Positions 3,001 through 51,374 are shown, counted from the stretch's first letter. The stretch: 64,000 nucleotides of DNA from an uncultured Clostridium sp. (GCA_964388545.1 CAYMAV010000001.1:6272-70271), one strand, 5' to 3'. The notes: generated by a model not told the origin, from the sequence alone. Program-made: numbers and translations.

Positions 3001-6000
3001 TTCCACTTTGATTAGATCCTCCATAAGTTGTATTAACTATTCCACCCAACAATCTAATATTTGAGCTTTCCGTAATTCCGGCTTGATTTCCTCCACCATA
3101 GATTTCTCCAACAGTTCCAGAGTTCATAACAACATTAGATTTTCTAACATTGGCAAGATTTCCACCACCATAAACAGTGTTTATATTAGTACCACCATTA
3201 ATAACTACATTAGTCTCATCAGATATAGCTTCGTTTCCTCCGCCATAAACTAAAGGAACTTCTCCACCATTTAAAGTAACATAGGAAAGCAAAGTTGTAC
3301 CACCTAGGTTATTACCGCCATAAATCTGATTAGCTTTTCCACTTGTAGTTATAATATTAGAAGCATTAACTGTTCCACTTTCATTAGACCCCCCATATAT
3401 TTTATCAATTGTCGAACCTTTTAAATTAACATTTGTTGTCGTTGCATCTGATCTATTACATCCACCAAAGGCATTAGTTGATACTCCACCATTTAAATTA
3501 ACAGTAGCCGTATTAATAGGTGCATAATTTCCTCCACCATAAAGATTGTTTACTGTTCCACCATTTAAATTTACAGTTATCGTTCCATTAGGTGTACCTT
3601 TAACATCGTTCGCTCCCAACGCGTTATTAACTGTTCCTCCATTAATATTTACCGTAACATTTCCCAAAACATATGGAGTTGTATTTTGATCTCCTTCGCC
3701 ACCACCAAATAAAGCTCCTTCTACGGTTCCTTTATTCATATTTACGGTTGTTGTGTAAGGACTTACATTGCTGTTTGCAACAGTTCCATTAACTACTCCT
3801 AAAGCACTTCCACCATAAACTCTATTTACAATTGGACTTGCTGGATAATTAACATCCCCAATATTAACAACAACATTTTCACTAACAAAAGTACCAGAGT
3901 TTGTTCCCGATACTCCACCTTTTCCACCACCATAGATGCTACCTGCAACTATACCGCCATTAATATCTAAATTAGTACTTCCATGTATTGTTCCACTAAA
4001 ATTACTTCCGCCATAGATACTACCTAAAACATTTCCATCAAGCATTTTAATATATATTTGAGATTTTTTGCTAGTACTTCCCGAACCATTTCTATTTCCA
4101 CCACCATAAATATCTTGGGAAATTGTTCCTCCTAATACATTAATTTTACTTTGAGTTGTTGTTTGACTACCACTTATACCAGTAGCACCAAAATTTCCAC
4201 CACCGTAAACAGAATTTAAAACATTAGCATCTTCATCGATTATTACAAAGGAATTATAAGCTGTCCCAATTGTCGAATACCCATTTCTTCCATTTCCAAT
4301 ACCAAAAACATTACCAGCTGTTGCACCATATAAAGTAAGATTAGCTGCAACAACATCAGGATCTCCTACCATTACATTACCACCAACATAAATAAATGGA
4401 TTGCCTCTTAATGTTCCATCTCCCTCAGAACCAGTATAAGCATTACTTCCACCAAATACATTGTAATTGATCTTACCACCAGTTAATTGAATTATCCTGT
4501 TACCATAGGTTGCTGTAAGTCCTGCTCCTCCAAATACTGCATCGATATTTCCTCCCATTATATAGATATAACTATCATTTAGATTTTCGCGACTAGAATC
4601 CGTTAAAGGTCCTGCTATTAAATTATAGATATAACCACCTTCAACACGACCCATTCTTGATGTGTAATGAGTCCCAGCGTATCTCCCACCGATATAAATT
4701 CCAAAACTATAATCCGTTTTTAATGTTCCAAAACTTCCGCTTTTTACAACAGTATTAAAAGAACTAACATCATTGTTAGAATAATAGTTTCCACTCCAAG
4801 ATCCACCAGCACAAAAATAAAATGTAAGATTAGAATTGTTTTGAGTTATCCTGTCATAGTCATTTCCATAAATACCTTTAGCAAGAACATAATTAGTTGT
4901 TGTACTCCAGGAAGTTGATGCACCATTTGTTAATGATAATGAACTATAGGGTCCACTTTCTACTATCAATTTATACTTTTTAGGATTACTACTACTTCCC
5001 ATACTGCTGTTAGTCCCACCAATAATTGACCTAAAAGCAACGCGAGTTGAACCGCCCGCAGTTATTCCTCTTCCAAGCTTTAGATTATATCCATTACCAT
5101 AAATTGATCTTGTGGTACTAGTAGAACTAGATGGATTATATTCTCCTCCATATGAAGCTGAATAAATATTAATATTTTCTATTCTAACATCGCTATACAA
5201 GTTAACCGCACGGCTACTTATTGTCCATGTCGCCCCACTTACACTACCATTATTTAAAGTAGTTAAAGTAAATGGTTTTGTATTACTATTCCATGTATAG
5301 CTATTATTACTATTCATAACAACGATATTGGTATCTCTAGTAACTAGATAATAATAATCTTTATAGATATCTAAATAATTAGCATTCCCTGCTTGATCTG
5401 CGTATTGAATTAATCTATATAAAGTACATCCGGTTGAGGAATTACAAGTCCCCGACATCAAATTTCCCTGATTATCATATAAACCCGTTATACTTGAATA
5501 CCTTGGAATAATAACCTGCTCATAATAGCCTGACATAACAAAATTATTATTAAAATCATTATGATATGTAATGCTATCTATTTCAAAAACTATCGTATTA
5601 ATGTTAAGCGGTGTCATACCAGTTGCTACTAGATAATAATAATTTGATGATGGTGTTACACCATAATATAGATACTCGGTTTCTGGGGGATTTAGGCTAT
5701 AATAGGTACATCCACCCCAAGAATTACAATAGCAACTGCTTCCTTGCAAACTCCCATAATAATCATAATAACCACTACAACTAGAATTTCTAGGAACAGT
5801 TACTTGTTTATAATATCCCACTAAATCATAAGGTTTATAATTAATAGTATGAGTGTTAATCTTAACCATACTTATATTTTTTAATCCGTTTAAAGCATTA
5901 TTCCAAGACGATGAATTATTAGTTGTTATATAAGAAGTCGTAGCCTCAGTCCAACTAGCATAAAAGTTTACTATCGTAGCATCCGGTATATCCCCATCGT

Positions 6001-6571
6001 AGGTGATGGGAATCTTGGCAAACCTTTCATAGTAAATATTATCAAAGGATATTTCACCATTAGTATAATTTGTATACCAACCATTAAAAGCTTTATTAGA
6101 TGGTCTATTAGAAAAAGGATTATCGATTAACTCTATTAAGATATAATCATCCTCTTTATTAGTGGGAGTACCATTATTATTAACTAGAAAATAATTATAA
6201 TAAACATATAGATATTGAGATTCCGTATTAGATACATATCCTTTTAATCCGTTATTAATATCTTCACCACTATAAATAACCTTAGTCTCAACTAAGTTAA
6301 ATTCATTATAAATATTTTGGTTTTCTCCACTTGGAAGAGCGTTATAGGTAGTAGTTGTATAATTTAGACCTTTATAATAGTTTAGATCTCTTTCTGAATC
6401 ATTAATATAAATTGTCTCTCCAACAATACCAGAAGCTTCTTTTTGCAGTTTAGAGACAAATTCCCCGTGGCTTTTTAAAAAAGTTGAGAGTGCTATTGCT
6501 AGAAACAAAAAAGACAAAAAGAAAAAAACTACTTTTTTTAATTTGATAAGTTCTATTCTTTTTATCTTCAT
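1..6571 (-). CDS. Giant secreted/surface repeat protein (N-terminal >=2190 aa; C-terminus beyond window start). Signal peptide followed by a Cys-rich duplicated module, then >35 tandem ~25-aa YGGGN beta-solenoid-type repeats, then a non-repeat C-terminal region.
   Basis: Minus-strand ATG at 6571-6569 preceded by RBS GAGGGG (revcomp of 6576-6581). Translation begins MKIKRIELIKLKKVVFFFLSFLFLAIALSTFLKS. The frame stays open through position 2. Repeat signature is visible on the + strand as recurring ccaccaccataaa / ccgccataaa about every 75 bp between ~1900 and ~4900. Absent from the ORF track because there is no stop codon in the window. Confidence 0.7.
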   Translation of the reverse strand, partial: MKIKRIELIKLKKVVFFFLSFLFLAIALSTFLKSHGEFVSKLQKEASGIVGETIYINDSERDLNYYKGLNYTTTTYNALPSGENQNIYNEFNLVETKVIYSGEDINNGLKGYVSNTESQYLYVYYNYFLVNNNGTPTNKEDDYILIELIDNPFSNRPSNKAFNGWYTNYTNGEISFDNIYYERFAKIPITYDGDIPDATIVNFYASWTEATTSYITTNNSSSWNNALNGLKNISMVKINTHTINYKPYDLVGYYKQVTVPRNSSCSGYYDYYGSLQGSSCYCNSWGGCTYYSLNPPETEYLYYGVTPSSNYYYLVATGMTPLNINTIVFEIDSITYHNDFNNNFVMSGYYEQVIIPRYSSITGLYDNQGNLMSGTCNSSTGCTLYRLIQYADQAGNANYLDIYKDYYYLVTRDTNIVVMNSNNSYTWNSNTKPFTLTTLNNGSVSGATWTISSRAVNLYSDVRIENINIYSASYGGEYNPSSSTSTTRSIYGNGYNLKLGRGITAGGSTRVAFRSIIGGTNSSMGSSSNPKKYKLIVESGPYSSLSLTNGASTSWSTTTNYVLAKGIYGNDYDRITQNNSNLTFYFCAGGSWSGNYYSNNDVSSFNTVVKSGSFGTLKTDYSFGIYIGGRYAGTHYTSRMGRVEGGYIYNLIAGPLTDSSRENLNDSYIYIMGGNIDAVFGGAGLTATYGNRIIQLTGGKINYNVFGGSNAYTGSEGDGTLRGNPFIYVGGNVMVGDPDVVAANLTLYGATAGNVFGIGNGRNGYSTIGTAYNSFVIIDEDANVLNSVYGGGNFGATGISGSQTTTQSKINVLGGTISQDIYGGGNRNGSGSTSKKSQIYIKMLDGNVLGSIYGGSNFSGTIHGSTNLDINGGIVAGSIYGGGKGGVSGTNSGTFVSENVVVNIGDVNYPASPIVNRVYGGSALGVVNGTVANSNVSPYTTTVNMNKGTVEGALFGGGEGDQNTTPYVLGNVTVNINGGTVNNALGANDVKGTPNGTITVNLNGGTVNNLYGGGNYAPINTATVNLNGGVSTNAFGGCNRSDATTTNVNLKGSTIDKIYGGSNESGTVNASNIITTSGKANQIYGGNNLGGTTLLSYVTLNGGEVPLVYGGGNEAISDETNVVINGGTNINTVYGGGNLANVRKSNVVMNSGTVGEIYGGGNQAGITESSNIRLLGGIVNTTYGGSNQSGTVVSSNIETVNGTFTNIYGGNNYGGLTQSSNLLINGGLISNIFGGGNHANSTTSNVILQKNTGTIINVYGGGNEASVTTSNVIVRGGVKIQNLFGGSNRAGDVTTANVNVEVSTNKPNITYIYGGNNQGGITSNAILNIDYGNIKDIYGGGNNAPTSRVNLNVGNADVSGSVFGGGNQSFVENNVDVKVENTRITNSIYGGGNLGEVRGNIILHITDSIIGHSVYGGGNGQSATVYGNTTLNVDGVTTVTNHIFGGGNAAVTGREDLNNSSSVVNIAGLTCGGNVYGGANTSVLYGVANVNIGANTLINNLLKRGNINIGGTVFGGGEANASGSEVYDFTFISVTVGINIKIDAESHSVFNINGSIFGSGNASSTSGYSNILIKNYGTEANYKKNVSIQRAQNVTLSNSVIELNGATDRTNEYSDVLFSISRVDSLKLTNNSVLYLETGTNLLKKFTSSVIVNNLETPEIITIDDNGNVTRNVNNKLFVYGGKNINIATNENITAYGEVVGMTFFGMYGYDRDGKVYTAIYKTNYNNDSIVPSQDLLYFDKGSYVLGLHKINHNYEVDGFYSVFNDKNDPDRIYVDFVEPTPEDSNYYIWAIGEQVASFDITLTASKYSTLGIYELPLINFSNPNTAFSILNFNYDGINSDINLVEKENIPRVADNSADADRIMSLVMESSDTGWVTDSRTTFLTNEERISGSINYKKENSSGVPTLLFYLYHSKNLQTSGEMGTGVISLVAIIPIDDLNNEVKRININVTLNRALYQSNEYEGTISSGKKYEMFPTSLVNITSTSSFSTYYSLYAEADTTIYKPGYHRVLSSTYNLPENTKITMIDLREGSLPEYYYYVVTAQDYIDKGVEIADHGDAAYKLSKFIKMGSTTQTNNYDDAVKNQIYWKNTYAEEEFIFIFDFKNAGINEDVINKMMILELRSSDNQIITSVIGIQQQQLIYNIYTNKDPILELNSSLLSNNVYLGDNIYLNVRTNFTQSTVGGNLVVDT

Positions 6572-6582
6572 ATTAATCCCCT

Positions 6583-7584
6583 CTATGCTGGATTTATTGT
6601 AAATTGTAAATTAAATACAATGTCATCAAAGGATGCTCCATCTTCGCAGTCAACATCCTGTCCTTCAATCCACATATATATTCTTACTTTTGTTATTCCT
6701 TGTTGTAATCTAAATATTTGTTTAAATTGATCAAAATTCTTTTCAGTATAATAATCAATATTTACTCTTTTAAAATAATTTGGATATTTAGTTTGATTAG
6801 CATCTTTTACATTTACACCAATATCCTTAGTAAATGCGCTTATTAGTCCATCATATGGAATTTGTGGTCCATTAGTATTAGGAATAGTAATTCCGTAGAC
6901 ACTTTGAGCATGTGCTACTGCTGCATCGGTATGAACATCATAATTAGGTTCCCAAATATAAGTAGTAGCAGGAGTTGCTCCCTTAAGAGCTTGTACAACG
7001 GCTGGATTAGTACCTATCGGACGAGTTCCTTGTATCAAATAGGCAACTCTTGTAGAAGCTGCTATTCCTTTTTCTGAATTAGTATCCATATAGACAACAT
7101 TTGAATTAGTACTCATATAAATATCAATATCGTTAAAAGTTCTAAAGAATAGATCAAAAGCGATAAACTTACCAATACTAGTACTCCCATGACTTTCAGT
7201 TTCAATATTTCTTGTCGATGTTAAAATATTATTTCCATCTTCATCGCTTTCCGCTGTACCATAATACATTTTTAGAAAACCAGTAGTTGCATCTATTTCT
7301 TTTCCAGTTGATACCGGCTCCATTCGATCAGGAATTTGATTTGTACTTCCTAGATAACCTTGATCTCTAGCTGAAATTATATCTTCAGGATCTACTACCG
7401 TTGTCCAATTTATCGCATTTGATGATATTTCTATACCACCCGATGCCTCGACATGAATATTAATGCTTCTGATAGTTACAATTCTATTATGAGTAAACCA
7501 AGCATAAGTCGAGGTCGAAAGCATAATCGCCGTAAGTAACAATAAAAATATAAAAAAGTATACTCTTCTTTTATTAATCATCAT
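6583..7584 (-). CDS. TasA/camelysin-like secreted protein (SipW-cognate-type signal peptide)
   Basis: N-terminus MMINKRRVYFFIFLLLLTAIMLSTSTYAWFTHN resembles the TasA/CalY signal region (GTWAAFND / GTFAFFSD). C-terminal segment NLQFTINPA resembles the TasA-family C-terminal (L/I)(Q/E)(F/W)(S/T)F motif. Lies 12 bp upstream of the giant gene on the same strand. Confidence 0.55.
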   Translation of the reverse strand: MMINKRRVYFFIFLLLLTAIMLSTSTYAWFTHNRIVTIRSINIHVEASGGIEISSNAINWTTVVDPEDIISARDQGYLGSTNQIPDRMEPVSTGKEIDATTGFLKMYYGTAESDEDGNNILTSTRNIETESHGSTSIGKFIAFDLFFRTFNDIDIYMSTNSNVVYMDTNSEKGIAASTRVAYLIQGTRPIGTNPAVVQALKGATPATTYIWEPNYDVHTDAAVAHAQSVYGITIPNTNGPQIPYDGLISAFTKDIGVNVKDANQTKYPNYFKRVNIDYYTEKNFDQFKQIFRLQQGITKVRIYMWIEGQDVDCEDGASFDDIVFNLQFTINPA

Positions 7585-32309: not shown

Positions 32310-32897
32310 CTAAACTATAATAATTATTATAAATAATACTATTGATAAAAGAAGTATTAAATAATCAATTTTTTCCCATCTTGATTCATAATGATTATTA
32401 TTAACAACTCTAAAACCAAAAAATCTAATTCTAGATTGAAGGTAATTTCTTTCTAGGTCTTTTCTTAATTTTTTTTCGATTTCTACTTCTTTTTCATAAT
32501 TTAAATCCACATTATTCTTTATATTAGTTAGGGCATAGTTATAATTTTTTTCATAGAATTGACCTCTTCTATTATTATTGTTCCTTGGATAATACTTATT
32601 TTTTAAATAATGTCTTTGTCTAATAGAAAGATATATAAAGAAAATATATATTATAATAATAATTAAAAATATCTTAATAATTAGATAATTTAAACTTATG
32701 CCAAAGATTAAATATAATAGCAATAAAAGAGTTAAAACAAATGCAAAAATTCTTCTATTAATAAATAAAAGGATCAGGTTTAATGAACAAAACACAAGTA
32801 AAACATAATAATTATTTGTTATTACCACGCTTATAATTGCTAATATTGCTATAATAATTTTTAAATATAAATTCATTCTATACATGTTTATATACAT
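32310..32897 (-). CDS. Hypothetical polytopic membrane protein at the position normally occupied by ecfT
   Basis: 4 hydrophobic segments plus a basic RNNNNRRGQ loop. 3-bp gap to truA. Confidence 0.45.
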   Translation of the reverse strand: MYINMYRMNLYLKIIIAILAIISVVITNNYYVLLVFCSLNLILLFINRRIFAFVLTLLLLLYLIFGISLNYLIIKIFLIIIIIYIFFIYLSIRQRHYLKNKYYPRNNNNRRGQFYEKNYNYALTNIKNNVDLNYEKEVEIEKKLRKDLERNYLQSRIRFFGFRVVNNNHYESRWEKIDYLILLLSIVLFIIIIIV

Positions 32898-33561
32898 CCT
32901 TTATTATATCTCTTACATCTTTGCTATAAAACAATTTTACATCCTTATCCTTTTTAGCCTTATAAGTTATATAAGAAAGAGTCGGAACCTCTAATTTTAA
33001 CTTTAAAAGAGTATCTACATTAGAATAAATATCTTCTGTTTTTCCATATTTTATAGTTGTTTTATTGCTTATAACAGAATAATCACCATATTTATATAAT
33101 CTATTAATATCGTCTGCTACTAGAATTACTATATATTTTTTATTGACTAAATATTTAAACATCTCAATAATCTTTTTTTCCATTGAAATATCAAAACCCT
33201 TAAAAAAATCCATAAAAACTATTATTTGGGTGTTAAATGATAAATTTCTAAATAAGTTAAGCAAAATCTTCTCCATTAAAGAAAGACTATCAATTTTTCT
33301 ATCAAGAAAACTACTATCGTAATCAAATATCTGAATTATTTCATTTACATATTCTAAATCTGGCATATCATTGTAACAAAACATCTCATTTAATACCGTA
33401 TCTGCTATAAAAAACAAATTTCTATTATCAATAACTCTTAAATCATTTTTATCACTTAAATTCTCTAGTATTATATCTTCTTCAATCGATTGAATTGTTA
33501 AAATTCCTTTGCTAATTTCAATCTTTTTACTTTTGGAACTACCTTTGATAACTAATTCCAT
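32878..33561 (-). CDS. Degenerate ABC-ATPase-like protein lacking Walker A (ecfA2 position)
   Basis: No P-loop. Residual Walker-B-like IIVFMDFF and C-terminal ILVADDIN...KYGKTEDI regions. Confidence 0.45.
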   Translation of the reverse strand: MELVIKGSSKSKKIEISKGILTIQSIEEDIILENLSDKNDLRVIDNRNLFFIADTVLNEMFCYNDMPDLEYVNEIIQIFDYDSSFLDRKIDSLSLMEKILLNLFRNLSFNTQIIVFMDFFKGFDISMEKKIIEMFKYLVNKKYIVILVADDINRLYKYGDYSVISNKTTIKYGKTEDIYSNVDTLLKLKLEVPTLSYITYKAKKDKDVKLFYSKDVRDIIKDVYKHV

Positions 33562-34361
33562 AAAGCCTCCACCACCTTATCAGGATCGTAATAGATTTTA
33601 TCTATTAAATCATAAAATCTCAGTTTCATAGATAAATCTACCATTATTGGAATTATTATTCCCATTTTTGCAAGTTCATTATCGTTTTCAATAATTCGAT
33701 CAAACATACCATTTAGAAATATTTCACCATCTCTAATTACAGTTATGTTTGTAGCATCAATTACATCTTCTAAATCGCTTGTTACAAGAATAATTGCCAT
33801 ATTATACTTTTTATTAATTTCTTTTATTATTTTCCTTATTTTAATCTTTTCATCGTTTTTTAGTAATTTATATATATCGTCTAAAAATAATAATTTTGGC
33901 TTATGAATAATGGATGCGCCTAATAAAACCTTAACCTTTTCAAAATAGGTTAATCTATTAGTATCTTTTCCTAATATTAATTTAATATCTACTAGATCCG
34001 CTACTTCTTCAACTCTTTTTTCTATTATATGATCTTCAACATTCAAATTTTCTAATGGATATTTTAATTCTTCCACTACCTTATTACAGATAAATTGATT
34101 ATCAATATCATCCAAAATTGTGGAAATTCTAACTGCAAATTTACCTAAATTCTTCTTACATACCTCAATATTATCAATATAAATTTTCCCAGAATCTACA
34201 TAGTCAATACCGCTTAATAGTCTAATAAGTGTTGTCTTACCACTATTTCCAGAAAGTAAGATGCCATTTACACTGCCTTCTTTAATAGATAAAGAAAGAT
34301 TAATAAAGAGATCTCTATCATATGATTTGTAAATATTTTCTACTTTTAATATTTTCTTCAA
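33552..34361 (-). CDS. Divergent ABC-type ATPase (ecfA1 position) with degenerate signature, Walker B Glu and H-loop
   Basis: P-loop LSGNSGKTT. Signature replaced by LTYFEKVKV. Walker B LLFLDDIY (Asp in the Glu position). H-loop VTSDL (His lost). Confidence 0.6.
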   Translation of the reverse strand: MKKILKVENIYKSYDRDLFINLSLSIKEGSVNGILLSGNSGKTTLIRLLSGIDYVDSGKIYIDNIEVCKKNLGKFAVRISTILDDIDNQFICNKVVEELKYPLENLNVEDHIIEKRVEEVADLVDIKLILGKDTNRLTYFEKVKVLLGASIIHKPKLLFLDDIYKLLKNDEKIKIRKIIKEINKKYNMAIILVTSDLEDVIDATNITVIRDGEIFLNGMFDRIIENDNELAKMGIIIPIMVDLSMKLRFYDLIDKIYYDPDKVVEALWN

Positions 34362-34429
34362 AATACATCCCCCATTTAATTAATGACTTATATTATATAA
34401 TAAAATCTAAAAAAAGAAAGTAAAATCTC

Positions 34430-35956
34430 TTACTTTTCTTTTATTAATATATCTCCAGTCATTTCACTTGGTATATCTAGTCCAAGTGTTTTTAAAATTG
34501 TTGGAGCGATATCTGCAAGTTTACCATCTCTTAAAGAAACATTTTTATCAGTTATAATACAAGGAACTTTATTTAGAGTATGAGAAGTAACTGGATTTTT
34601 ATTACTATCCCACATCATCTCACAGTTACCATGATCAGATATTACAATCATTGTATAATCTAACTCTTTAACTGCTTTTTCATATATCTTACCAATACAA
34701 TTATCAAGTGTCTCTACTGCTTTAGCTGCCGCTTCGTAATTACCAGTGTGTCCTACCATATCTCCATTTGCTAGGTTAAGAATAGTTACATCAAATTTAT
34801 CTATTTCTTCTAATAATTTATCTGTTACTTCATAAGCGCTCATTTCTGGCTTTAAATCATAAGTTGCTACCTTAGGAGATGATATTAATATTTTTTTCAT
34901 ATCATCGTATTCAACTTCTCTTCCACCGTCAAAGAAAAAAGTAACATGTGCATATTTTTCAGTCTCTGCTATTCTTAACTGACTTCTTTTATTCTTATGC
35001 AAATAATCTACTAAAAGATTTTCTAAATTTAAATCATCAAAAATATGAGGAGATTTAACAACATTTACTACTGGAAACATTGTAAGAGTCTTTAAATTTT
35101 TTATTTCTTTAAATTCTATTCCAGTATTCTTAGAAATCTCTTTTCTTAATTCATCATTAGATAGTAGTCCAAACATCTCTCTTAGGCGATCTTTTCTAAA
35201 ATTAAATGTTATAAACGCATCATTATCACTTAAAGGGGCGTTATCTATTAAAGCTGGTACAACAAACTCATCGTATACACCTTTATTATAGCTCTCTTCA
35301 ATAAGGGCCTTATAACTATTATATTTTTTCCCTTTTCCTAAGCAAATCGCATCATATGAAAGTTTAATTCTGTCATAATTATTATCGCGATCCATTCCAT
35401 AATACCTTCCCGATATAGTTGATATTTTTCCTATACCAAGCTCATTAATTTTATCGCTTAAAATATCTAAATATTTAATAGCACTTTTCTCATATGTATC
35501 TCTTCCATCTAAATATAAATCTATATATACATTATTAACATTATTTTTCTTACAAATATCCAGTAAATATAATAGATGTTCAATATGAGAATGAACTCCA
35601 CCATCAGATAATAATCCCGTTATATGTAGATTTGATTTATGTTCTTTAACATGCTTAAAAACTTCCAATAGATGATGATTTTTCTCTAAACTTTTATCGA
35701 TAATTGAATTGTTAATAGCTTCTAATGGTTGGATAATAACCCTTCCACTACCAAGATTCATATGTCCTACTTCACTTGTACCCATTTGTCCTTCTGGTAG
35801 ACCAACCGCTTGTTCACTAGCTGCAAGCTCTGAATTAGGATAATTTTTAAATAAATAATCTAAATTAGGAGTATTAGCATTTACAAAAGCATTTCCATCT
35901 TTTTCTTTTCTAATTCCAACTCCATCCATAATACAAAGCAAAACTCTTTTATGCAT
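34430..35956 (-). CDS. gpmI: 2,3-bisphosphoglycerate-independent phosphoglycerate mutase
   Basis: LLCIMDGVGIRKEKDGNAF and SEVGHMNLGSGRV motifs. 508 aa. Confidence 0.9.
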   Translation of the reverse strand: MHKRVLLCIMDGVGIRKEKDGNAFVNANTPNLDYLFKNYPNSELAASEQAVGLPEGQMGTSEVGHMNLGSGRVIIQPLEAINNSIIDKSLEKNHHLLEVFKHVKEHKSNLHITGLLSDGGVHSHIEHLLYLLDICKKNNVNNVYIDLYLDGRDTYEKSAIKYLDILSDKINELGIGKISTISGRYYGMDRDNNYDRIKLSYDAICLGKGKKYNSYKALIEESYNKGVYDEFVVPALIDNAPLSDNDAFITFNFRKDRLREMFGLLSNDELRKEISKNTGIEFKEIKNLKTLTMFPVVNVVKSPHIFDDLNLENLLVDYLHKNKRSQLRIAETEKYAHVTFFFDGGREVEYDDMKKILISSPKVATYDLKPEMSAYEVTDKLLEEIDKFDVTILNLANGDMVGHTGNYEAAAKAVETLDNCIGKIYEKAVKELDYTMIVISDHGNCEMMWDSNKNPVTSHTLNKVPCIITDKNVSLRDGKLADIAPTILKTLGLDIPSEMTGDILIKEK

Positions 35957-37172
35957 TTAAACCAGCCCTCGCTCTCGCATCTGCAATTTGATAAAATCTA
36001 TCGTCTCTTATTCTTCTTACATTATAACCTTTATATCCTTGACCAACCTCTGATCCGGCTGCCATTTGTCTTGAATTAACAGTATCCATTCTCTCAATTT
36101 GCCCATCCCAAGTATCGAGAATCAATAAATCTTCGCTTCTTAAATCAGCCGCACTCTTAACATTAGACTTAAAACCAACCACTGTAATAACATGTCGACC
36201 ACCTGGTTTTTTCCTTTTAACATCTATTGAAACAGGTCTTCCAGCTTTTAATTCCTCATATATAGCAGCAAGTGCTGCTTGTTTATTTGAAGTATCAATT
36301 CTTCTATCCCTATTATAATAAACATCTCCAGCTGCACTATGCATCTGTTGTGAAAGACTTCCACTATATTTTTCATTCATAAGCATACTCTTTGCATAGA
36401 AATGAGCTGCTGAAAAACAAGAATTTGTCGCATCAGATCCATCTTGATATATTCTGTTTTTCTGAATATAGTTAAAAAAATCAACTAATCCAAATGCTGT
36501 ATCTACAACTGAATATTCACCATAATTCAACATGTTTCCTTCTCTTCCAACTAACATATTATGAGTTAATAAATAGTTGTTTGGTTGATTAGATTTAACA
36601 TATTGAGCATTATCGTTACTTCCTACTGGTACATTAATTTTAATTTTCTCTGGTTTTAAAGAATTAATCTTTTGTATTGTCGTATCACAATCAGACACTA
36701 ATGTTTTTAATTCAGTATCAAGTTTTGATTTTTCACCAACAAGAGAATTCATTTTACTCATATAAGTAGCATAATCCGGATTATTGTTTCCCTTGCTATC
36801 TTTAGCACTTGGTTCTGGCCCTAAAGCTTTAATTTGTTCATCTATTTCCTCTAATCTTTCGTCTTTTTCTTTAAGAATTTTTAGCTTTGGAAGTAAGGTT
36901 CCAATAGCCAAAGTTACCGCCTCCACTAAAATTGTCGCTCCCTGATTTAAAACACCCATCTGAGTACTTACAATTTGCATAAATTCACTAGTTAACTGAG
37001 CCTTTCCCAATTCTATCCAAGAGGATGCATCAATACTAGAAGATAAATCCTTTATTTTTGTATGAGCACCCATCATTTCGTCTGAAACACTTTGAGCAGA
37101 AGAGGTCATATCCGTTGCTTTTTCTAATGAATCATAATATTTTTTATATTTATCCGTAAAGTACACTGCCAT
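35949..37172 (-). CDS. Hypothetical two-domain protein: helical LXG/WXG-like N-terminal region plus C-terminal papain-like (Cys/His/Asp) domain
   Basis: N-terminal helical region with SWIELGKAQL. C-terminus NSCFSAAHFYAKSM...PGGRHVITVVGFK...LLILDTWDG. The C-terminal third is unusually Ala/Gly/Arg-rich for this genome. Confidence 0.5.
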   Translation of the reverse strand: MAVYFTDKYKKYYDSLEKATDMTSSAQSVSDEMMGAHTKIKDLSSSIDASSWIELGKAQLTSEFMQIVSTQMGVLNQGATILVEAVTLAIGTLLPKLKILKEKDERLEEIDEQIKALGPEPSAKDSKGNNNPDYATYMSKMNSLVGEKSKLDTELKTLVSDCDTTIQKINSLKPEKIKINVPVGSNDNAQYVKSNQPNNYLLTHNMLVGREGNMLNYGEYSVVDTAFGLVDFFNYIQKNRIYQDGSDATNSCFSAAHFYAKSMLMNEKYSGSLSQQMHSAAGDVYYNRDRRIDTSNKQAALAAIYEELKAGRPVSIDVKRKKPGGRHVITVVGFKSNVKSAADLRSEDLLILDTWDGQIERMDTVNSRQMAAGSEVGQGYKGYNVRRIRDDRFYQIADARARAGLNA

Positions 37173-38310
37173 TTGGTCCTCCTTCTTTTACCTCAGGAAT
37201 AGTGGTTTCTGGAACTTCCTCAATAACATAATCTTCTGGTAAAAGAGTTCCTTCATCTATCTCTTCGGTTTGATTTATATCTACGCTTTGCTCCATTTTA
37301 TCATTATTTTTTGTTTGTTCTATTTCTTCAAAACCTTCACTAGGTATGAATTCATCTGGATTTACATCTGTTTTTTCTTCAGTATTGTCTGACTCATTCG
37401 TATTAGCTGTTCCTTTATTTTCTTTATCATTATTCTTTTTTATTAAATGATCAAAAGCCGAAGTCATTTCCACATCTTCTGATGTAGTAGATGGTCCTTC
37501 TTGTTTTATCTCTAACCTTTTAGCAATATAGGCCTTTATTTTATCAAACTCTTCTGCAGTAACTTTACTATTGTGAATTCCGCCTTCATATATCTTAATT
37601 AATAAATTCTTTAAAATTCCTTCATATTTAGAATCTACTAATAAATCTCCTACTGTAATATTATTTTCTTTAGCAAAGTCTATTAAAAACTCTCTTAGAA
37701 TATAAATTGTATCCTCTAATTCTATATTATCTAGTTTTTCAGAAAACAACTTATTAATTAAAGTTTTCTTTATTAGTTTTATATCTTCTTCGCTAAATTC
37801 TCCATCTAATTTTAATTGATCCTTTAATATTTTAAATAAATTAGCCGATTGTTTAGGATCAAATAATAATTCATCCAAATTAACCTTATCCTTTAAAACA
37901 TTTATATTATGTATTAAGTTCGAAAGTGCATTTTTATCAGTATTCTGTAGACTTGCAACTATTCCTTCTACAATTTGAGCTGGATTAGTAGTATCAACTG
38001 GCGGATTAACTCCACTTCCATTACCAGAACCCCAATCGTTGAATTGATTTTGATTACCCATCTCCAACTCTTGCATATTTGCTAGATGAGAAGAAATACT
38101 TTGGGCGATTAAATCTAATACACTTGATACTTGTTCGGCATTACTAACTAATATTTCAATTCCCTCAACAAAAAGTTCACAATCAGTTAATCCTTTAAAA
38201 CCACTTTTTAGCTTTTCTGTAACATTGGAGCTAACAGAGGTAGAAGCTGATTTAAACTGTGAAACAATGTTTTCTATTTCGCTAGATTGTATATTCATTT
38301 GATTTTCCAT
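37150..38310 (-). CDS. Hypothetical protein: helical N-terminal region plus acidic low-complexity C-terminus. Translationally coupled to the 35949 gene.
   Basis: 23-bp overlap with the downstream gene. GSGNGSG linker. Acidic tail EEIDEGTLLPEDYVIEEVPETTIPE. Confidence 0.5.
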   Translation of the reverse strand: MENQMNIQSSEIENIVSQFKSASTSVSSNVTEKLKSGFKGLTDCELFVEGIEILVSNAEQVSSVLDLIAQSISSHLANMQELEMGNQNQFNDWGSGNGSGVNPPVDTTNPAQIVEGIVASLQNTDKNALSNLIHNINVLKDKVNLDELLFDPKQSANLFKILKDQLKLDGEFSEEDIKLIKKTLINKLFSEKLDNIELEDTIYILREFLIDFAKENNITVGDLLVDSKYEGILKNLLIKIYEGGIHNSKVTAEEFDKIKAYIAKRLEIKQEGPSTTSEDVEMTSAFDHLIKKNNDKENKGTANTNESDNTEEKTDVNPDEFIPSEGFEEIEQTKNNDKMEQSVDINQTEEIDEGTLLPEDYVIEEVPETTIPEVKEGGPNGSVLYG

Positions 38311-38319
38311 ACTACCTCC

Positions 38320-39603
38320 TTATATTAATTCACTTAGACAAAATGTGGCATAAACTGGTATACATCTAATTCCTCTTCTAAGCGAGAAATTATCGCCTGA
38401 TATTCTTATTAATTGAGATGGATTATATTTAGAATTAAATACCGATAACGATTTTGATTTACTTTTATTAGATGCAGTAATTTCGATAGGAATTATATAG
38501 CCAGCCTTAGTTTGAATTACAAAATCGATAAAAGCTTTTCCACTTGATTGATAATAATATAAATTATATCCATTCGAGATAAGCGATACGGCTACACTAT
38601 TTTCATATAGTATCTTCATATACTCATCAGTATTTTCAACTAATAATTTGCTGGCTTTTAATTTTTTAAATAAAATACCAGTATCATTCATATAAACCTT
38701 AAAAGAATCTAAATCCCTATAACTGCTTAACGGAGATTTTACATCATTTAAGCGATAGCATTTATATACAAAAGCATTATTATGAAGAAAGTTAAGAGAG
38801 TTTTCATATTCTTTGCTTCTTCCACCTTCTTTAATCAGCCCATACATAAATTTTTTGTTGTCTTTTAAGAGTTGTAAAGGAACACTATTATAAACTTCTA
38901 CACTTCTTGTAATATCTATTAGATTTTCTTGAGTACCAATTTCTTTTAAATAAGTATCAATGATTTTATCAAAGGTAGAATTAAGAAGTAGTTTGTTTTC
39001 GTTTTGAATAAATTGATGAACCGCCTCAGGCATACCTCCCGTTAACAAATAATCCTGAAAATAATCCATCGAGATATTATGAAATGGATTTTTTTTGTTA
39101 TGTTTAAAAGAATTTTTAATATAATCTATTAATTCGCTTTTATTAATTGCTATTAAAAATTCCTCAAAGTCCATTGGTAAAACCGATTTAAATTGTAACT
39201 CAATTCCTTTAAATGAAGATAAATTATCTTTTAAGGAAGTTATTAATATAATATGATAATCATTTTTAAACTTTCCAAAAGTCTTTATAATATTAACGAG
39301 TTCTACGCTATGAACATTATCAAAAACTACCAAAGTTGCTTTTTTTTCGATTTTTTCCATAGAATATTTTTCAAGTTTTAAAACAATACCATCAATTGTT
39401 GTTTCCTTTTTTACATAATCAAAAAGTTTCGTATTCTCATTTGAATCAATATAAACTACATTATCATAATTTTCATATCCGTAATTTAATACCGAATAAG
39501 TCTTTCCTACTTGCTTTGATCCATAAATAAGAAGCGGTTTTCTCTCTGAGTCTTTTTGCCACTGTTCTAAAAATTTATCAATTTTTCGTTCCATAAAATG
39601 CAC
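38320..39603 (-). CDS. AAA+ ATPase of the AAA_14/DUF4143 family
   Basis: Walker A LLIYGSKQVGKTYSV. Walker B LVVFDNVH. 427 aa. Confidence 0.75.
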   Translation of the reverse strand: MHFMERKIDKFLEQWQKDSERKPLLIYGSKQVGKTYSVLNYGYENYDNVVYIDSNENTKLFDYVKKETTIDGIVLKLEKYSMEKIEKKATLVVFDNVHSVELVNIIKTFGKFKNDYHIILITSLKDNLSSFKGIELQFKSVLPMDFEEFLIAINKSELIDYIKNSFKHNKKNPFHNISMDYFQDYLLTGGMPEAVHQFIQNENKLLLNSTFDKIIDTYLKEIGTQENLIDITRSVEVYNSVPLQLLKDNKKFMYGLIKEGGRSKEYENSLNFLHNNAFVYKCYRLNDVKSPLSSYRDLDSFKVYMNDTGILFKKLKASKLLVENTDEYMKILYENSVAVSLISNGYNLYYYQSSGKAFIDFVIQTKAGYIIPIEITASNKSKSKSLSVFNSKYNPSQLIRISGDNFSLRRGIRCIPVYATFCLSELI

Positions 39604-39651
39604 TCCAATATCATTTATTATACTTTATTATAATATTTACTAAAAAATAAG

Positions 39652-40359
39652 TCAATTGTTTGATTTTAGACTTTCTACTATTGTCATGATATATTGCCGA
39701 TTACTAGGCTTACCCTTATTTTGACATACACTATAACCAAAAAGTTTATCCATAATATCAAAATTTCCCCTATTCCAACTAACCTCTATCGCATGTCTAA
39801 TATTTTTTTCAATACATATCTTATTTGTTGAAAAGTTCTCCGCAATATTGGAATACAAATCGCCAAAAAGGTAGTGATCATTTTTATATAACTCTGCAAT
39901 AGACTTTTTCAGATATAGATATCCCTTTAGATGAGAAGGAATACCTAGGTCGTGTAAGATGTTTTTAATTTTATCTTCTATATTGATATTTTTAATTATA
40001 GAATCTCCTTTTATTAAATCCTCTATTACTTTTGGTTCCGTTGGTTTTATTAAAATACTATCTACCTCAACAGTATCTAATCTCTCAATTATCTTCTTTG
40101 ATATATATGAGGTGTTTACTATTACTTTTTTTGATTTAATATTTTTGTTTATTTCTTTAATTATCGAAATACTATCCACATTGGATAATATTAAATCTAA
40201 AATTACTATTTGATAATCATCGTTTTCTCTTACATAATTTATAGCTTCTTCTCCACTAGAAAAGCTTATAATTTCAATAAGACTATGATTACAAAAATAC
40301 TTTTTATAACTATTGATTAAATCTATATCATAATCAATTAAAAGTATTTTATTCTTCAT
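39652..40359 (-). CDS. Spo0A-like response regulator (receiver domain plus Spo0A_C DNA-binding domain), unusually short
   Basis: C-terminus LGIPSHLKGYLYLKKSIAELY...NIRHAIEVSWNRGNFDIMDKLFGYSV...GKPSNRQYI closely matches the Spo0A C-domain (HIKGYLYLREAI...ERAIRHAIEVAWSRGN...LFGYTV). The N-terminal receiver has D in ILDL, T in VNTSY and K in ILIKP. Confidence 0.7.
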   Translation of the reverse strand: MKNKILLIDYDIDLINSYKKYFCNHSLIEIISFSSGEEAINYVRENDDYQIVILDLILSNVDSISIIKEINKNIKSKKVIVNTSYISKKIIERLDTVEVDSILIKPTEPKVIEDLIKGDSIIKNINIEDKIKNILHDLGIPSHLKGYLYLKKSIAELYKNDHYLFGDLYSNIAENFSTNKICIEKNIRHAIEVSWNRGNFDIMDKLFGYSVCQNKGKPSNRQYIMTIVESLKSNN

Positions 40360-40448
40360 CTATTCCTTTCTATTATAATAATAGCATTTTTAAATCTTTT
40401 AACAAACAAATTTAATCATATTAAATAATTGTTTACAAAAAAAGATTA

Positions 40449-41153
40449 TTAACTTTTATTAATAATCTTTAAAAAATCTTCACATATTGTACTAGCCTTA
40501 CCAATTAGGTATCCGTCAAGATCTTTAACCCTGCTTAATTCCTCAATATTATTAGCATTTACACTTCCACCATACAACACTTTTACATTATATTTATATT
40601 TTTCTTTTATTATTTTTTTAATGTAATCCATTATCTCTTCTATTTCTTCGACTTTAGGTATTAGGCCAGTTCCAATAGACCAAACTGGTTCATAAGCAAT
40701 AACAATATTTTCCCTTTTTGCAGTTATACCATTTAAAACCTCTTCTATTTGCAACTTAACTTTATCCTTATACTTATTTTTTTCTCTTTCTTCTTTAGTT
40801 TCACCTACACAATAAATAGGTATTATATCTTCTTCTAAAAGATTATTAATTTTAATTATTAAAGTTTCTTTTTCTTCCTTAAAAAATTCTCTTCTTTCAG
40901 AATGACCAACTAAAGAATACTTTACTCCCAAACTTTTTAACTGACTGGCAGTTACTTCTCCTGTTGAATTATCATTAGTATTAATCGATACATCTTGAGA
41001 ACCTAACAAAAAATTAGTCTTATTAAATTCGTTAATAAACGGAATAGAAGGTATTATAACTACACTACTAACATCCTTATCTTTAAAATATTTTACAAAT
41101 TCTTCAATTTTTTCCTTTTTTAGATATGCCTTTTGATTTCCAACTATTAACAT
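40449..41153 (-). CDS. tpiA: Triosephosphate isomerase
   Basis: IVGNQKAY, HSERR, YCVGET, YEPVWSIGTG, YGGSVN motifs. The annotated start overlaps the upstream GT4 gene by 50 bp. Confidence 0.85.
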   Translation of the reverse strand: MLIVGNQKAYLKKEKIEEFVKYFKDKDVSSVVIIPSIPFINEFNKTNFLLGSQDVSINTNDNSTGEVTASQLKSLGVKYSLVGHSERREFFKEEKETLIIKINNLLEEDIIPIYCVGETKEEREKNKYKDKVKLQIEEVLNGITAKRENIVIAYEPVWSIGTGLIPKVEEIEEIMDYIKKIIKEKYKYNVKVLYGGSVNANNIEELSRVKDLDGYLIGKASTICEDFLKIINKS

Positions 41154-42381
41154 TTTGACGTTTCCTTCCTACAATCTTTTTTTTAAAACTATTAATTATT
41201 CTATACTCGTTATATTTATGATTTCTTATCGCTTCTTCATAAACCTCTATAACCGATTCTCCATAATATTTAGAACTAAATACACTCGAGGTTCTTCTAG
41301 CGCCTTTTTGTAATTTTAATAATTCTTTTCTATCATTATATAAATCTTCAATTATTTTTATATATTCTTCTTCATTTTTAAAAAATCTTCCGTCAACTCC
41401 ATCAGTAACCATATTTGTAAAACTCTCATCATATATACAAATAGGAGGAACAGATGCAGCCATCGCCTCTATTACTGTTAAACCTTGCGTTTCTGAAGTT
41501 GATGCGGTAGCAAATAAATCTCCTAAATGATAATAACTAGGAATTTCATCCCATGATACCTTACCGGTAAAGATAACATTATCATCTATTTTTAATTCAA
41601 CCGCCTTGCTTTGATATTCTAAAACATCTGGGCCATCACCAACAATAATTAACTTTATATTTTTATTTTTTATTTCTTTTTGCGCTTCTAACAATAAATC
41701 GATATTTTTTTCTTTAGCTAATCTTCCAACAAACAAAATACAAAAATCATCATTCTTTATTTTATATTTTTCTTTTAACTCTTTTACTTTCTTTATATTT
41801 ATATTTTCTTTATAAAACCTTTCAATTTCAATTCCTGTTGGAATAACATAAATATCTTTATCTACCTTATATTTTTTCTTAAATAAAACCGAAATTTTCT
41901 TCGTTGGCACAATTAATTCATCAGCCATATCGTCACAAAAGAAAACTGAAAAATATTTTGCTATTTTTTTACTAGCTCTAGTAAAATAACCTTTAGTAAC
42001 ATAATGCATATAGTCCTCATATAAAGTATGATAAGTGTGAACCAAAGGAACTCCATTTTTCTTTGATAGTACTCTAGCAAAAATACCCATACTAAACTCG
42101 GTATGTGAGTGATATATATCCAAATTTAAATCATCAATGATCTTTTTAGCTTTTCTCGGATACGGAGAGGTTAATCGATAATCATATATTCCTGTTTTAA
42201 AACCAGGTATTTTAATAACCGTATTATTTTCTTCATAACCATATTTCTTACCCTCATTATTAATGGTTATTACATATACTTCATGTCCTAATGACTCCAA
42301 CGATCTTTTAAGCATTTGAACACTAGTAGAAACTCCATTAATAAATGGAGGATAAGTATCCGAAAAAAGTCCTATTCTCAT
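41104..42381 (-). CDS. GT4 glycosyltransferase, alpha-monoglucosyldiacylglycerol-synthase-like (glycolipid synthase)
   Basis: MRIGLFSDTYPPFINGVSTSV N-terminus typical of MGlcDAG synthases. C-terminus has an E-x7-E motif. Confidence 0.7.
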   Translation of the reverse strand: MRIGLFSDTYPPFINGVSTSVQMLKRSLESLGHEVYVITINNEGKKYGYEENNTVIKIPGFKTGIYDYRLTSPYPRKAKKIIDDLNLDIYHSHTEFSMGIFARVLSKKNGVPLVHTYHTLYEDYMHYVTKGYFTRASKKIAKYFSVFFCDDMADELIVPTKKISVLFKKKYKVDKDIYVIPTGIEIERFYKENINIKKVKELKEKYKIKNDDFCILFVGRLAKEKNIDLLLEAQKEIKNKNIKLIIVGDGPDVLEYQSKAVELKIDDNVIFTGKVSWDEIPSYYHLGDLFATASTSETQGLTVIEAMAASVPPICIYDESFTNMVTDGVDGRFFKNEEEYIKIIEDLYNDRKELLKLQKGARRTSSVFSSKYYGESVIEVYEEAIRNHKYNEYRIINSFKKKIVGRKRQNVNSWKSKGISKKGKN

Positions 42382-47357: not shown

Positions 47358-48374
47358 ATGACAGAAAAATATAAAATTTTAAATGATGAATCACTAGAAT
47401 TTTTTGAAAATCTTTTAAAAGATAAAGTCAAGGATAAAAATAATTTAGACAGATGTAAGAATGAATTAAAATTACTTTATGAAACAGGTTCTCTTTTTAT
47501 TATAGAAGCCTTATATTTATATAAAAAGAAAAATAAACATATAAAATACTTTTTTAAAAGAACATTTAATAATCTACTTATATTATATTTATTAAAATTA
47601 AATGCTGTTGATCCAATAAAATATAACTTACCATATTATTTTTTTAACGAAAACAAATTAGATGTCGCTATAATAAATGAACCGTCAATTATCTTTATTT
47701 GTTATGAGCTAGGCAAAAAGGATTCCTTCAAAGTAATAGCTGGAAATTTTCAAGAAGAAGACATAGAAGATGTTCCCTTTTTGCTTGATCATTACATATT
47801 TATCCCATATTATATACATCCTTTGGATATGCAGTTTAAATTAAGAAATAGTATGTTTGAAACAGTTGAAGATTTTAGGAATTATAAAAATGAATATTTG
47901 ATTGCTAGAATAAGCGAAATAGAGCCTTTTGTAAATTTAGATATAAAGATCGAAAATGCTTTTACATCAGAATTTGAATTAATGTTAAAAGAAAAATTAA
48001 AACCAAAAACCTTTAATGACTATGTTAAAATTATCTCACTAGCACATGGGACTAATGTATGGAGTGATAATCAAGACAAGCTCTTTGAAAAAGGGAAAAT
48101 TAACATTAAAAATATAATTAGTAATAGAGAAGATATTTATGAACTATTACTTGATCATTCTATAGATGAAAAAACAGCATTAAGAATGTGTAAAGTTTTA
48201 TTTTTTCCAAAGAAAAATAAAAATTATGAATGGAAGGAATGTATAAAAATTATGAATGATCATAATATAGATGATATGTATATAGATATTTTCTATAGAT
48301 TAAATTATATAGCTCCTAGAGGTCAATATGTTAATGAATGTTTAATTGCATTAGATAAGAAAAATTATGTATAA
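47358..48374 (+). CDS. Stand-alone PolC/DnaE C-terminal-region-like protein (pol III alpha fingers/HhH-region homolog lacking the catalytic palm)
   Basis: [51 protein letters not shown] and [16 protein letters not shown] align with the PolC segments [49 protein letters not shown] and YMFPKAHAAAYVLMAV. N-terminal [23 protein letters not shown] resembles [31 protein letters not shown]. Confidence 0.55.
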   Translation: [338 protein letters not shown]

Positions 48375-50972: not shown

Positions 50973-51374
50973 TCAATTGGAATTGACCTCTAACTCATTA
51001 ATATTTTTATCAATATCACTTTTAAGAGTTGTATTTAAATTCTCATAATTTTCTACAGCCATATTTAAAAATTTTATATATATTAACAACGACTCTGATA
51101 TTGAATCATAACTATTAGTAAGCTCTAAATATTTTTCACAATATTTTTTTTGAAGTTCACTATTCCATATATCGGTCCCTAATTCAGAATAAAACTTTAG
51201 CAGCTTTTCTTGAAACTCTCCGCCTAAATTTCCAACAATATAATTACAAGCAGTCATTTCTGCCAATATATTTTTAAAATTTACAGATAAACTTTCCTTA
51301 GTTGTTTTTAAGGTTACAGAATCTGATAATTTATTATAATAATCTTGCATTTCTGCCGTAAAATATTGCCCCAT
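50973..51374 (-). CDS. Hypothetical protein
   Basis: 133 aa, acidic, predicted helical. Confidence 0.45.
   Translation of the reverse strand: MGQYFTAEMQDYYNKLSDSVTLKTTKESLSVNFKNILAEMTACNYIVGNLGGEFQEKLLKFYSELGTDIWNSELQKKYCEKYLELTNSYDSISESLLIYIKFLNMAVENYENLNTTLKSDIDKNINELEVNSN

Follow-up and report, generated by a model that had tools for sequence, protein, structure and literature searches.

A coupled protein pair from an uncultured Clostridium sp. as a probable reduced copy of a type VII secretion-type effector module with a C39-like peptidase

We analysed a 64-kb window of an uncultured Clostridium sp. genome (GCA_964388545.1, CAYMAV010000001.1:6272-70271; one strand, with coordinates counted from the window start), in which two overlapping minus-strand genes encode a 386-aa protein (37150-38310) and a 407-aa protein (35949-37172), both taken from open reading frame (ORF) calls. 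It is probable that this pair is a reduced, two-gene copy of an unannotated type VII secretion system (T7SS)-type effector module, in which a C39-like peptidase would be delivered to the cell envelope. The 407-aa effector combines an N-terminal carrier domain (residues 1-200; 36573-37172, minus strand) with a C-terminal papain-like cysteine peptidase domain (residues 205-390; 36003-36560, minus strand), and the 386-aa protein is its partner, referred to here as A2. The lengths of both proteins and the 23-bp overlap of their genes, as given in an initial annotation made from the sequence, were reproduced.

A C39-like peptidase domain on a helical carrier

Conserved residues and a structural model identify the C-terminal domain of the 407-aa protein as a papain-like cysteine peptidase of predicted activity, its Cys252/His327/Asp353 triad being intact. 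The three motifs quoted in the initial annotation are all there, namely NSCFSAAHFYA with the catalytic Cys (C252; 36417-36419), PGGRHVITVVGFK with the catalytic His (H327; 36192-36194) and LLILDTWDG with the catalytic Asp (D353; 36114-36116; all on the minus strand). A word-index search of 5.8 billion proteins returned eight full-length homologs of the 407-aa protein, and C252, H327 and D353 are invariant in all eight. The last ~185 residues are present in 31 loci in a scan of species-representative genomes, and in an alignment of 25 diverse peptidase domains the only invariant residues are C252, G311, R326, H327, G333 and D353. The invariance of the triad in both sets argues that the three motifs do not occur by chance. 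Q243 (36444-36446, minus strand), a candidate oxyanion Gln, precedes the Cys by nine residues and shows a conservation of 90% or more in the peptidase domain.

The window protein scores 19.8-20.5 bits against Peptidase_C39_2 (PF13529), below the gathering score of 24 bits, while 24 of the 25 domain members match this family (E < 0.1, best E 1.5e-8) and some relatives exceed the threshold (32.1 bits in locus L031 and 25.5 bits in L017). The peptidase family is thus a divergent outlier of C39_2. It has a conserved motif of its own, DLLILD[ST]WDG..ERMD..SR, and its members show scattered weak matches to C10, C70 and BtrH_N. The full-length AlphaFold2 (AF2) model was built from a shallow alignment and gave a predicted local distance difference test score (pLDDT) of ~40-60 in the peptidase domain; the domain was remodelled alone with 34 sequences, which gave a pLDDT of 89 and a predicted template modelling score of 0.89. 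In the domain model (domain numbering), Cys48 opens helix 47-61, His123 opens strand 122-131 and Asp149 lies just past strand 145-148. This modelled placement, with the Cys at a helix N-terminus and the His and Asp on successive strands, is the canonical arrangement of clan CA, and the domain is similar in fold to solved clan CA peptidases. Its best structural neighbours with isopeptide or gamma-glutamyl bonds as their targets are PeiR, Alr0975 and BtrH/CtaG. With the invariant triad, the C39_2 matches and the domain model in agreement, the papain-like fold first proposed for this domain can be regarded as solid.

The same peptidase domain is found in a variety of export contexts. It is combined with a signal peptide and two SH3_3 domains in L005 (likewise in L009 and L011 by sequence), with N-terminal membrane anchors in L016, L017, L021 and L031 (the last also containing a cadherin-like domain), with a surface Ig-like domain in L023, and with long coiled coils in Gastranaerophilales. 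It also occurs in large membrane-anchored proteins of Saccharibacteria, among which a 1042-aa protein in L019 has Peptidase_M23 (106.5 bits) and a related 920-aa protein in L022 has no Pfam match at E <= 0.001. The C-terminal domain swapping suggested in the initial annotation is therefore evident from these Sec signal plus SH3b, membrane-anchored and M23-fused forms. SH3_3 is a classic module for binding peptidoglycan, and M23 one for cleaving it. Because the domain is fused to such modules, we infer an envelope target for the peptidase, and the isopeptide- and gamma-glutamyl-directed structural neighbours would point in the same direction. In L019 (2681-10510) and L022 (1760-10558), both from metagenome-assembled genomes of Saccharibacteria (Nanosyncoccaceae), two adjacent large membrane-anchored proteins each end in a C39-like domain, and Peptidase_M23 is present on both L019 proteins; a wall-attacking role in these epibionts would fit.

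The carrier domain is confidently modelled as three long helices (residues 22-49, 57-116 and 132-170; AF2 pLDDT 86-95 over residues 1-170), with W52-x-E54-x-G56 in its first hairpin loop. G56 is the most conserved hairpin residue (at least 90% of 16 sequences, and invariant in a 9-sequence alignment); in a narrower 7-sequence alignment W52 and G56 are invariant and E54 is variable. The maximum Kyte-Doolittle 19-residue mean is 1.59 in the 407-aa protein and 1.12 in the 386-aa protein, i.e., neither has a strongly hydrophobic stretch, and on these means, with no dedicated predictor, both are read as lacking a signal peptide or transmembrane segment. The AF2 helices and the Kyte-Doolittle means thus give the 407-aa protein the ~200-aa elongated helical N-terminal domain without a Sec signal that is typical of LXG toxins.

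A search of the carrier profile against 1.84 billion cluster representatives matched 192 proteins at E <= 1e-3 (106 at E <= 1e-10), each representing a cluster defined at 50% identity. The match always starts at residues 1-10 and spans to ~190, in proteins ranging from 79 to 5353 aa. Among 147 new carrier representatives, 37 have the peptidase domain, and 76 other representatives with lengths of 300 aa or more were grouped by their C-termini into 22 unrelated clusters, such that the carrier is joined to at least 23 differing C-terminal regions (the A4-type C39 domain and the 22 other clusters). Representatives of these clusters match other Peptidase_C39_2 subtypes (37.9 and 25.2 bits) and PIG-L deacetylase (37.7 bits); others show weak matches to M90-like metallopeptidase and alpha/beta-hydrolase, and many are without a match. 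Polymorphic toxins are defined by just this pattern, in which a given carrier is combined with many cargos and a given cargo with many carriers (Zhang et al. 2012, PMC3482391). The polymorphic-toxin arrangement proposed for this locus is supported in this respect, the helical N-terminus acting as the carrier.

The partner protein and the four-gene module

The 386-aa protein begins with MENQMNIQSSEIENIVSQFKSASTSV, as had been annotated, and consists of an N-terminal helical region, a Gly-rich linker, a helical LLxD..K..IL..LLK region and a lineage-specific acidic tail. The tail had been described as very acidic and of low complexity, and in fact Asp and Glu make up 29% of residues 270-379 (37174-37503, minus strand) versus 16% of the rest of the protein. 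Two shorter homologs, P0010 (300 aa) and P0011 (278 aa), do not have this tail. The 386-aa protein has no Pfam, NCBIfam, PHROG or PDB match, and only three homologs were found by word-index search. Its residues 1-264 are a full-length homolog of the ~300-aa first gene in every canonical module described below (blastp E 5e-20 to 1e-8; hidden Markov model (HMM) E 3e-31 to 2e-21). Its first ~190 residues are also similar to the N-terminal part of the peptidase-bearing proteins in L006-L012 (hhalign probability 96.6, E 6.8e-10), where the gene order is wxgA, hB, a gene with an A2-like N-terminus plus the peptidase, and a gene for a protein that has the N-terminal carrier domain (Nterm-type) and no peptidase.

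A2-type and Nterm-type proteins co-occur in every related locus, and the peptidase can ride on either, which substantiates the suggestion that the two overlapping proteins are a true pair. Since the two types are always together, with the cargo on one or the other, they would be expected to act as a pair. The distribution of homologs shows the 386-aa protein to be, at the level of sequence, a cognate helical partner that always accompanies carrier proteins, and this gene co-occurrence suggests that the 386-aa and 407-aa proteins may pair physically. The same 23-bp overlap between the two genes is found in L032, a relative of 66% identity. A strong Shine-Dalgarno sequence, GAAGGAGGA (37177-37185, minus strand), is located 4 nt ahead of the ATG of the 407-aa gene (37172), within the 3' end of the 386-aa gene, where it encodes the KEGGP motif. 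KEGGPN is a conserved C-terminal motif of the 386-aa family in this lineage and shares bases with the Shine-Dalgarno sequence of the downstream gene (37172-37190); because the same bases form that sequence, the conservation of KEGGPN may act at the RNA level. Tight translational coupling of this kind, through the internal Shine-Dalgarno sequence and the overlap, would keep the amounts of the two partners in balance.

Scanning of all 58 loci with local HMMs revealed the canonical module, [A2, ~300 aa]-[wxgA, ~100 aa]-[hB, ~110 aa]-[toxin]. The module is complete wherever a distant locus encodes an Nterm-type toxin and extends far enough upstream, which amounts to at least 15 independent loci (L001-L004, L013, L015, L034, L044, L045, L047-L049, L051 and L054-L057), often in tandem arrays. 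In these distant relatives the modules are located elsewhere in the genome and have no AAA gene. W-x-G is present in all seven wxgA sequences and a C-terminal Y-x-x-x-D in six of them. One small gene, L034 6429-6737, passes the Pfam WXG100 gathering score (31 vs 27.3), and the other small genes score 19-25 bits. In NCBIfam, both small families have sub-threshold matches to TIGR03930 (22-34 vs 44.85) and ESAT6_2 (25-42 vs 100), and hB also matches YwqH-like weakly; searches of the PDB with A2 and hB gave no match. In one metagenome locus, L055, two modules are directly followed by a 1534-aa ORF that is an EssC/YukB homolog, matching YukB/EssC of B. subtilis (PDB 9qks, E 2.6e-127) and EccC proteins, with FHA-like similarity at its N-terminus. 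These neighbours tie the family to WXG100-like genes and, through a single locus, to EssC. It seems to form a previously unannotated T7SSb-like substrate module of low-GC uncultured gut Bacilli.

Two further observations were made. Giant proteins of 1288+ to 5353 aa, whose bodies have no Pfam match, also begin with the carrier domain (L010 13128-16994, P0155, P0176, P0202 and P0203), and a wxgA-hB pair precedes the L010 giant. The L034 island of the distant homolog P0006 (5006-8297) contains a second effector-like gene of 415 aa, with a helical N-terminus and an alpha/beta-hydrolase C-terminus (Peptidase_S9/DLH matches and a GHSNG motif), and with its own WXG100 pair and a 468-aa Gly/Ser-linker protein upstream. 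Several cargo types therefore share this one island.

The window copy, its export and its surroundings

Several observations weigh against the effector-module interpretation of the window pair. Only in the window lineage, i.e., the window and its close relatives, are wxgA and hB missing between A2 and the toxin, and no wxgA homolog was found in the 64-kb window by tblastn or HMM. EssC, EsxA and other T7SS core genes are likewise absent from the window, which agrees with the initial annotation that no secretion genes are in view: there is no complete ORF of EssC size, and one ORF of >2203 aa runs off the window start. On the close-relative contigs (L032, L033, L038, L039 and L042) no flanking ORF reaches EssC size, and none of nine large flanking ORFs scanned in L002, L006, L010, L013, L016, L017 and L019 matches an FtsK/SpoIIIE (EssC-type) family. 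Eight of the nine match housekeeping, cell-surface or M23-peptidase families, and the ninth (L010, 1289 aa) has no Pfam match, its N-terminus being a carrier domain according to the local HMM scan. For the scanned ORFs, a flanking EssC in related loci was thus rejected, L055 being the only locus where it was found, and adjacency to a secretion apparatus is the exception. The same is true of many LXG loci.

The searches for similarity also count against this interpretation. The initial annotation had likened the N-termini of both proteins to LXG/WXG100 types, and the Pfam models of these two families recognise neither of them; LXG (PF04740) and WXG100 gave no match at E <= 1 to the 407-aa protein or to 15 relatives. 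It follows that "LXG-like" describes an analogy plus genomic context rather than membership. The 407-aa protein has no NCBIfam match, a PDB profile search with the carrier domain returned coiled-coil noise only, Foldseek found only generic helical, BAR-like bundles for it (E > 0.01), and the papain-like Foldseek matches of the peptidase domain in the PDB are weak (E >= 4e-3). Finally, the toxin is without a downstream immunity gene both in the window and in most relatives, which is atypical for an antibacterial toxin, and the 407-aa gene has the orientation of gpmI, overlaps it and keeps a stable synteny in the lineage, such that it looks domesticated.

A homolog of hB, the second small partner and a putative WXG100-superfamily member, does persist in the window as an orphan 133-aa ORF (50973-51374, minus strand), 14 kb away, while hB in relatives is immediately upstream of the toxin. 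It is the sole match in the window to an hB HMM (E 9.9e-15) that was built without this ORF and is thus non-circular, and it is matched by six of nine hB queries in tblastn (E 3.5e-6 to 7e-4). It also has matches to ESAT6_2 (28.8 bits, E 1.1e-6, below the cutoff of 100) and Pfam YwqH-like (E 0.0038), and its first residues, MGQYFTAEMQDYYNKLSD, weakly resemble the toxin start. By sequence, the 133-aa ORF is a clear hB homolog.

Close relatives (55-66% identity) retain the gene order of the window, namely Spo0A-like, AAA, the ~300-aa gene, toxin and gpmI, and in one of them the toxin gene is duplicated in tandem, the two paralogs sharing 56% identity. The missing small genes, the T7SS genes that are nowhere in view and the lineage-specific acidic tail gained by the 386-aa protein could also be explained by decay or repurposing, whereby export was lost after loss of the two WXG100-like genes and the proteins are now non-functional or cytoplasmic. 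We consider such a remnant quite improbable. Neither ORF is disrupted in the window or on the close-relative contigs, and the triad and the coupling are preserved; full-length relatives are 55-66% identical in the 407-aa protein and 49-58% in the 386-aa protein; together with the duplicated toxin in one relative, this indicates purifying selection. The retained hB homolog also speaks against decay, and an active cytoplasmic papain-like peptidase without an inhibitor would probably be harmful.

Under the interpretation that we favor, a T7SS-type effector module, the 386-aa and 407-aa proteins would form a helical bundle that is recognised and exported by an EssC-type ATPase without a Sec signal, perhaps helped by WXG100-like factors supplied in trans, of which the 133-aa gene is an example. 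Once outside, the peptidase would act on the envelope of neighbouring cells or on that of the producer itself, where the likeliest substrate is a stem-peptide, cross-link or isopeptide bond of peptidoglycan, or a surface protein.

The missing immunity gene had already been pointed out in the initial annotation, and indeed gpmI (34430-35956, minus strand) directly follows, its start overlapping the stop codon of the 407-aa gene in ATGCATAA (35949-35956). In relatives, the gene after the toxin is infC, mutS, metK, another module or EssC; small two-transmembrane ORFs, possible immunity proteins, are found just after the toxin only in L057 (11080-11352, 90 aa) and L037 (3519-3722, 67 aa). This pattern raises the alternative of a self-directed enzyme that leaves the cell by the same helical-bundle route and then trims its producer's wall, either for passage of the secretion machine or its substrates, as in the case of EssH, or for growth, separation or sporulation. 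Such an enzyme would need no immunity protein. The fusions of the peptidase domain to SH3_3 and M23 are in line with this alternative, as are the stable, housekeeping-embedded locus with native GC content at third codon positions (GC3) and the precedent of EssH, a dedicated peptidoglycan hydrolase recruited by the T7SSb of S. aureus (PMC13059805). The 407-aa protein would be like EssH in being a papain-superfamily cysteine hydrolase tied to type VII secretion with no need for an immunity protein, and unlike it in its T7SS-substrate-like N-terminus and its polymorphic family. A carrier with at least 23 C-terminal regions, the giants of up to 5353 aa and the tandem arrays of diverged paralogs suggest an effector arsenal rather than one housekeeping enzyme. 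EssH itself is a CHAP-family enzyme exported by the Sec route. On balance, self-directed remodelling appears unlikely.

All genes in the 34-41 kb part of the window are on the minus strand and tightly packed. Upstream of the pair lie a gene for an ATPase with Pfam domains AAA_14 and DUF4143 (38320-39603), a Spo0A-like response regulator gene (39652-40359) and a tpiA-like gene (40449-41153). The AAA ATPase immediately upstream and gpmI next were correctly placed by the initial annotation; the ATPase had also been counted as a component of the cassette, and this view was rejected, since it is a neighbour only in the window lineage and is absent from every canonical module. The Spo0A-like gene, between tpiA and the AAA gene, scores 102.9 bits against Spo0A_C and 138.5 against the Spo0A equivalog TIGR02875, below its cutoff of 200, and keeps its position in close relatives. 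The best sigma-70-like site, TTGACT-17-TATAAT (39627-39655, minus strand; 11 of 12 positions), in the gap upstream of the AAA gene is tentatively a promoter for AAA-386-407-gpmI; the scan scored consensus matches only, and overall such sites are no more numerous than expected by chance. The region 34000-41600 yielded no minus-strand terminator.

After gpmI, the gene order is an ABC_tran gene, a ~227-aa gene, a ~195-aa hydrophobic protein and a pseudouridine synthase, which from order and sizes we read as an ecfA-ecfA'-ecfT-truA cluster. The 227-aa second gene (32878-33561, minus strand) has no match to ABC_tran or any other Pfam family, its 269-aa neighbour having ABC_tran, and its counterparts in relatives have no Pfam match either; it may therefore be a degenerate ATPase subunit. 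An ABC ATPase gene 1.6 kb downstream, together with the weak Pfam similarity to Peptidase_C39_2, might be taken to indicate a C39 peptidase that processes bacteriocins or leader peptides, or a lysin of a phage or conjugative element. Such an origin is extremely improbable and effectively refuted. There is no fused or adjacent ABC exporter, the downstream ABC genes being read as an energy-coupling factor cluster, no double-glycine substrate gene was seen, and the flanks of all loci examined are housekeeping genes. In addition, no PHROG match and no relative in 2.9 million viral contigs was found, and a phage or mobile-element origin was rejected on these grounds.

With respect to composition, the 407-aa gene has the highest GC content (0.332 vs 0.266 +/- 0.030) and the highest fraction of Ala, Gly and Arg (0.192 vs 0.119 +/- 0.030; 0.27-0.32 in the C-terminal domain) of the 54 genes in the window. 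GC3 of the peptidase domain is 0.172, versus a window mean of 0.164 +/- 0.023. The Ala/Gly/Arg richness in the initial annotation thus holds, but the horizontal origin that it was thought to hint at is not supported: as GC3 is native, the anomaly reflects a conserved amino-acid make-up, and recent horizontal transfer was rejected.

Two ORFs farther away were also noted. One of 338 aa (47358-48374, plus strand), which adjoins a WDGH-domain gene, weakly matches fragments of DNA polymerase III alpha (finger domain, 24 bits) and could be a remnant, or else an unusual free-standing fragment. The ORF of >2203 aa at the window start (1-6610, minus strand) begins with MKIKRIELIKLKKVVFFFLSFLFLAIALSTFL, a lysine-rich stretch followed by a hydrophobic segment that we read as a signal/anchor-like sequence and that is unlike the FHA-type start of the L055 EssC; the ORF probably encodes a giant surface protein.

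Comparison with known systems and implications

The module layout parallels that of LXG toxins with Lap1 and Lap2, because two small WXG100-like genes precede the toxin in the relatives, with YxxxD in the first here versus FxxxD in Lap1. LXG toxins of T7SSb are encoded with Lap1 (DUF3130) and Lap2 (DUF3958), e.g., TelC with LapC1 and LapC2 in Streptococcus intermedius (PMC9600955, PMC10801868); they require both small WXG100-like Lap proteins, and their export depends on the FxxxD motif of Lap1 (PMC9600955). Further similarities are the ~200-aa helical N-terminal domain that bears variable C-terminal toxin domains without a Sec signal, and the one family locus that adjoins EssC. In contrast to LXG systems, the family has no Pfam LXG, DUF3130 or DUF3958 match and has W-x-E-x-G as its hairpin motif, an extra obligatory ~300-aa partner is present, the effector domain can be on either partner, a downstream immunity gene is usually lacking, and the window copy is without the two small upstream genes. 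We know of no counterpart of A2 in LXG modules. It is thus a known kind of system, and what is new is the carrier family, the extra partner, the cargo on either partner and the frequent lack of immunity.

With regard to cargo, the nearest known systems are the Tox-PLC39/Peptidase_C39_2 toxins (PMC3482391), a C39-like effector of the type VI secretion system (T6SS; PDB 9jdd) and a papain-like CdiA-CT toxin (PDB 8ssm). They share with the window family the clan CA fold, the C-H-D triad, the position as a C-terminal toxin module and C39_2 matches from sub-threshold to threshold levels. The window family differs from them in being very divergent, as is evident from its score below the Pfam gathering threshold, its Foldseek E values of 4e-3 or above and its own motif. 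Zhang et al. (2012) list Tox-PLC39 with the type II secretion system, T6SS and Photorhabdus virulence cassette (PVC) export, and not with T7SS (PMC3482391).

The pair can also be compared with the EsxA/EsxB and PE/PPE heterodimers, as two co-encoded, translationally coupled helical proteins that always co-occur and that are associated with a WXG protein having an export-arm-like YxxxD motif. Unlike those heterodimers, the proteins here are much larger, and their pairing is suggested by gene co-occurrence only. On this analogy, A2-type and Nterm-type proteins could be a new obligate two-partner class of T7 substrates in uncultured gut Bacilli, loosely analogous to PE/PPE, with the cargo on either partner. 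In the window lineage, the pair would then have dispensed with WXG100-like targeting factors and immunity and become an operon-embedded, immunity-free cell-envelope peptidase, with a different export signal logic or domesticated for the wall physiology of its producer. We regard this two-partner reading as doubtful.

If the pair is a reduced T7SS-type effector module, these results have several implications. The LXG model and its Lap partners, on which the definition of T7SSb effectors mostly rests, come from a few cultured Bacillota. The substrate family described here was missed by the Pfam, NCBIfam, PHROG and PDB searches run and would be overlooked by standard domain screens. Its clusters number at least 192 and stem from uncultured gut and rumen Bacilli with small, low-GC genomes. 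The cargo linked to T7SS would come to include C39-like cysteine peptidases along with a PIG-L-type deacetylase, other hydrolase families being matched more weakly, all apparently directed at the envelope. The frequently missing immunity gene raises the question of how the producers are protected, or whether these proteins are weapons at all. The window copy, with its two genes and no small partners, could be considered a natural minimal version of the module and would be a convenient test case for what export needs.

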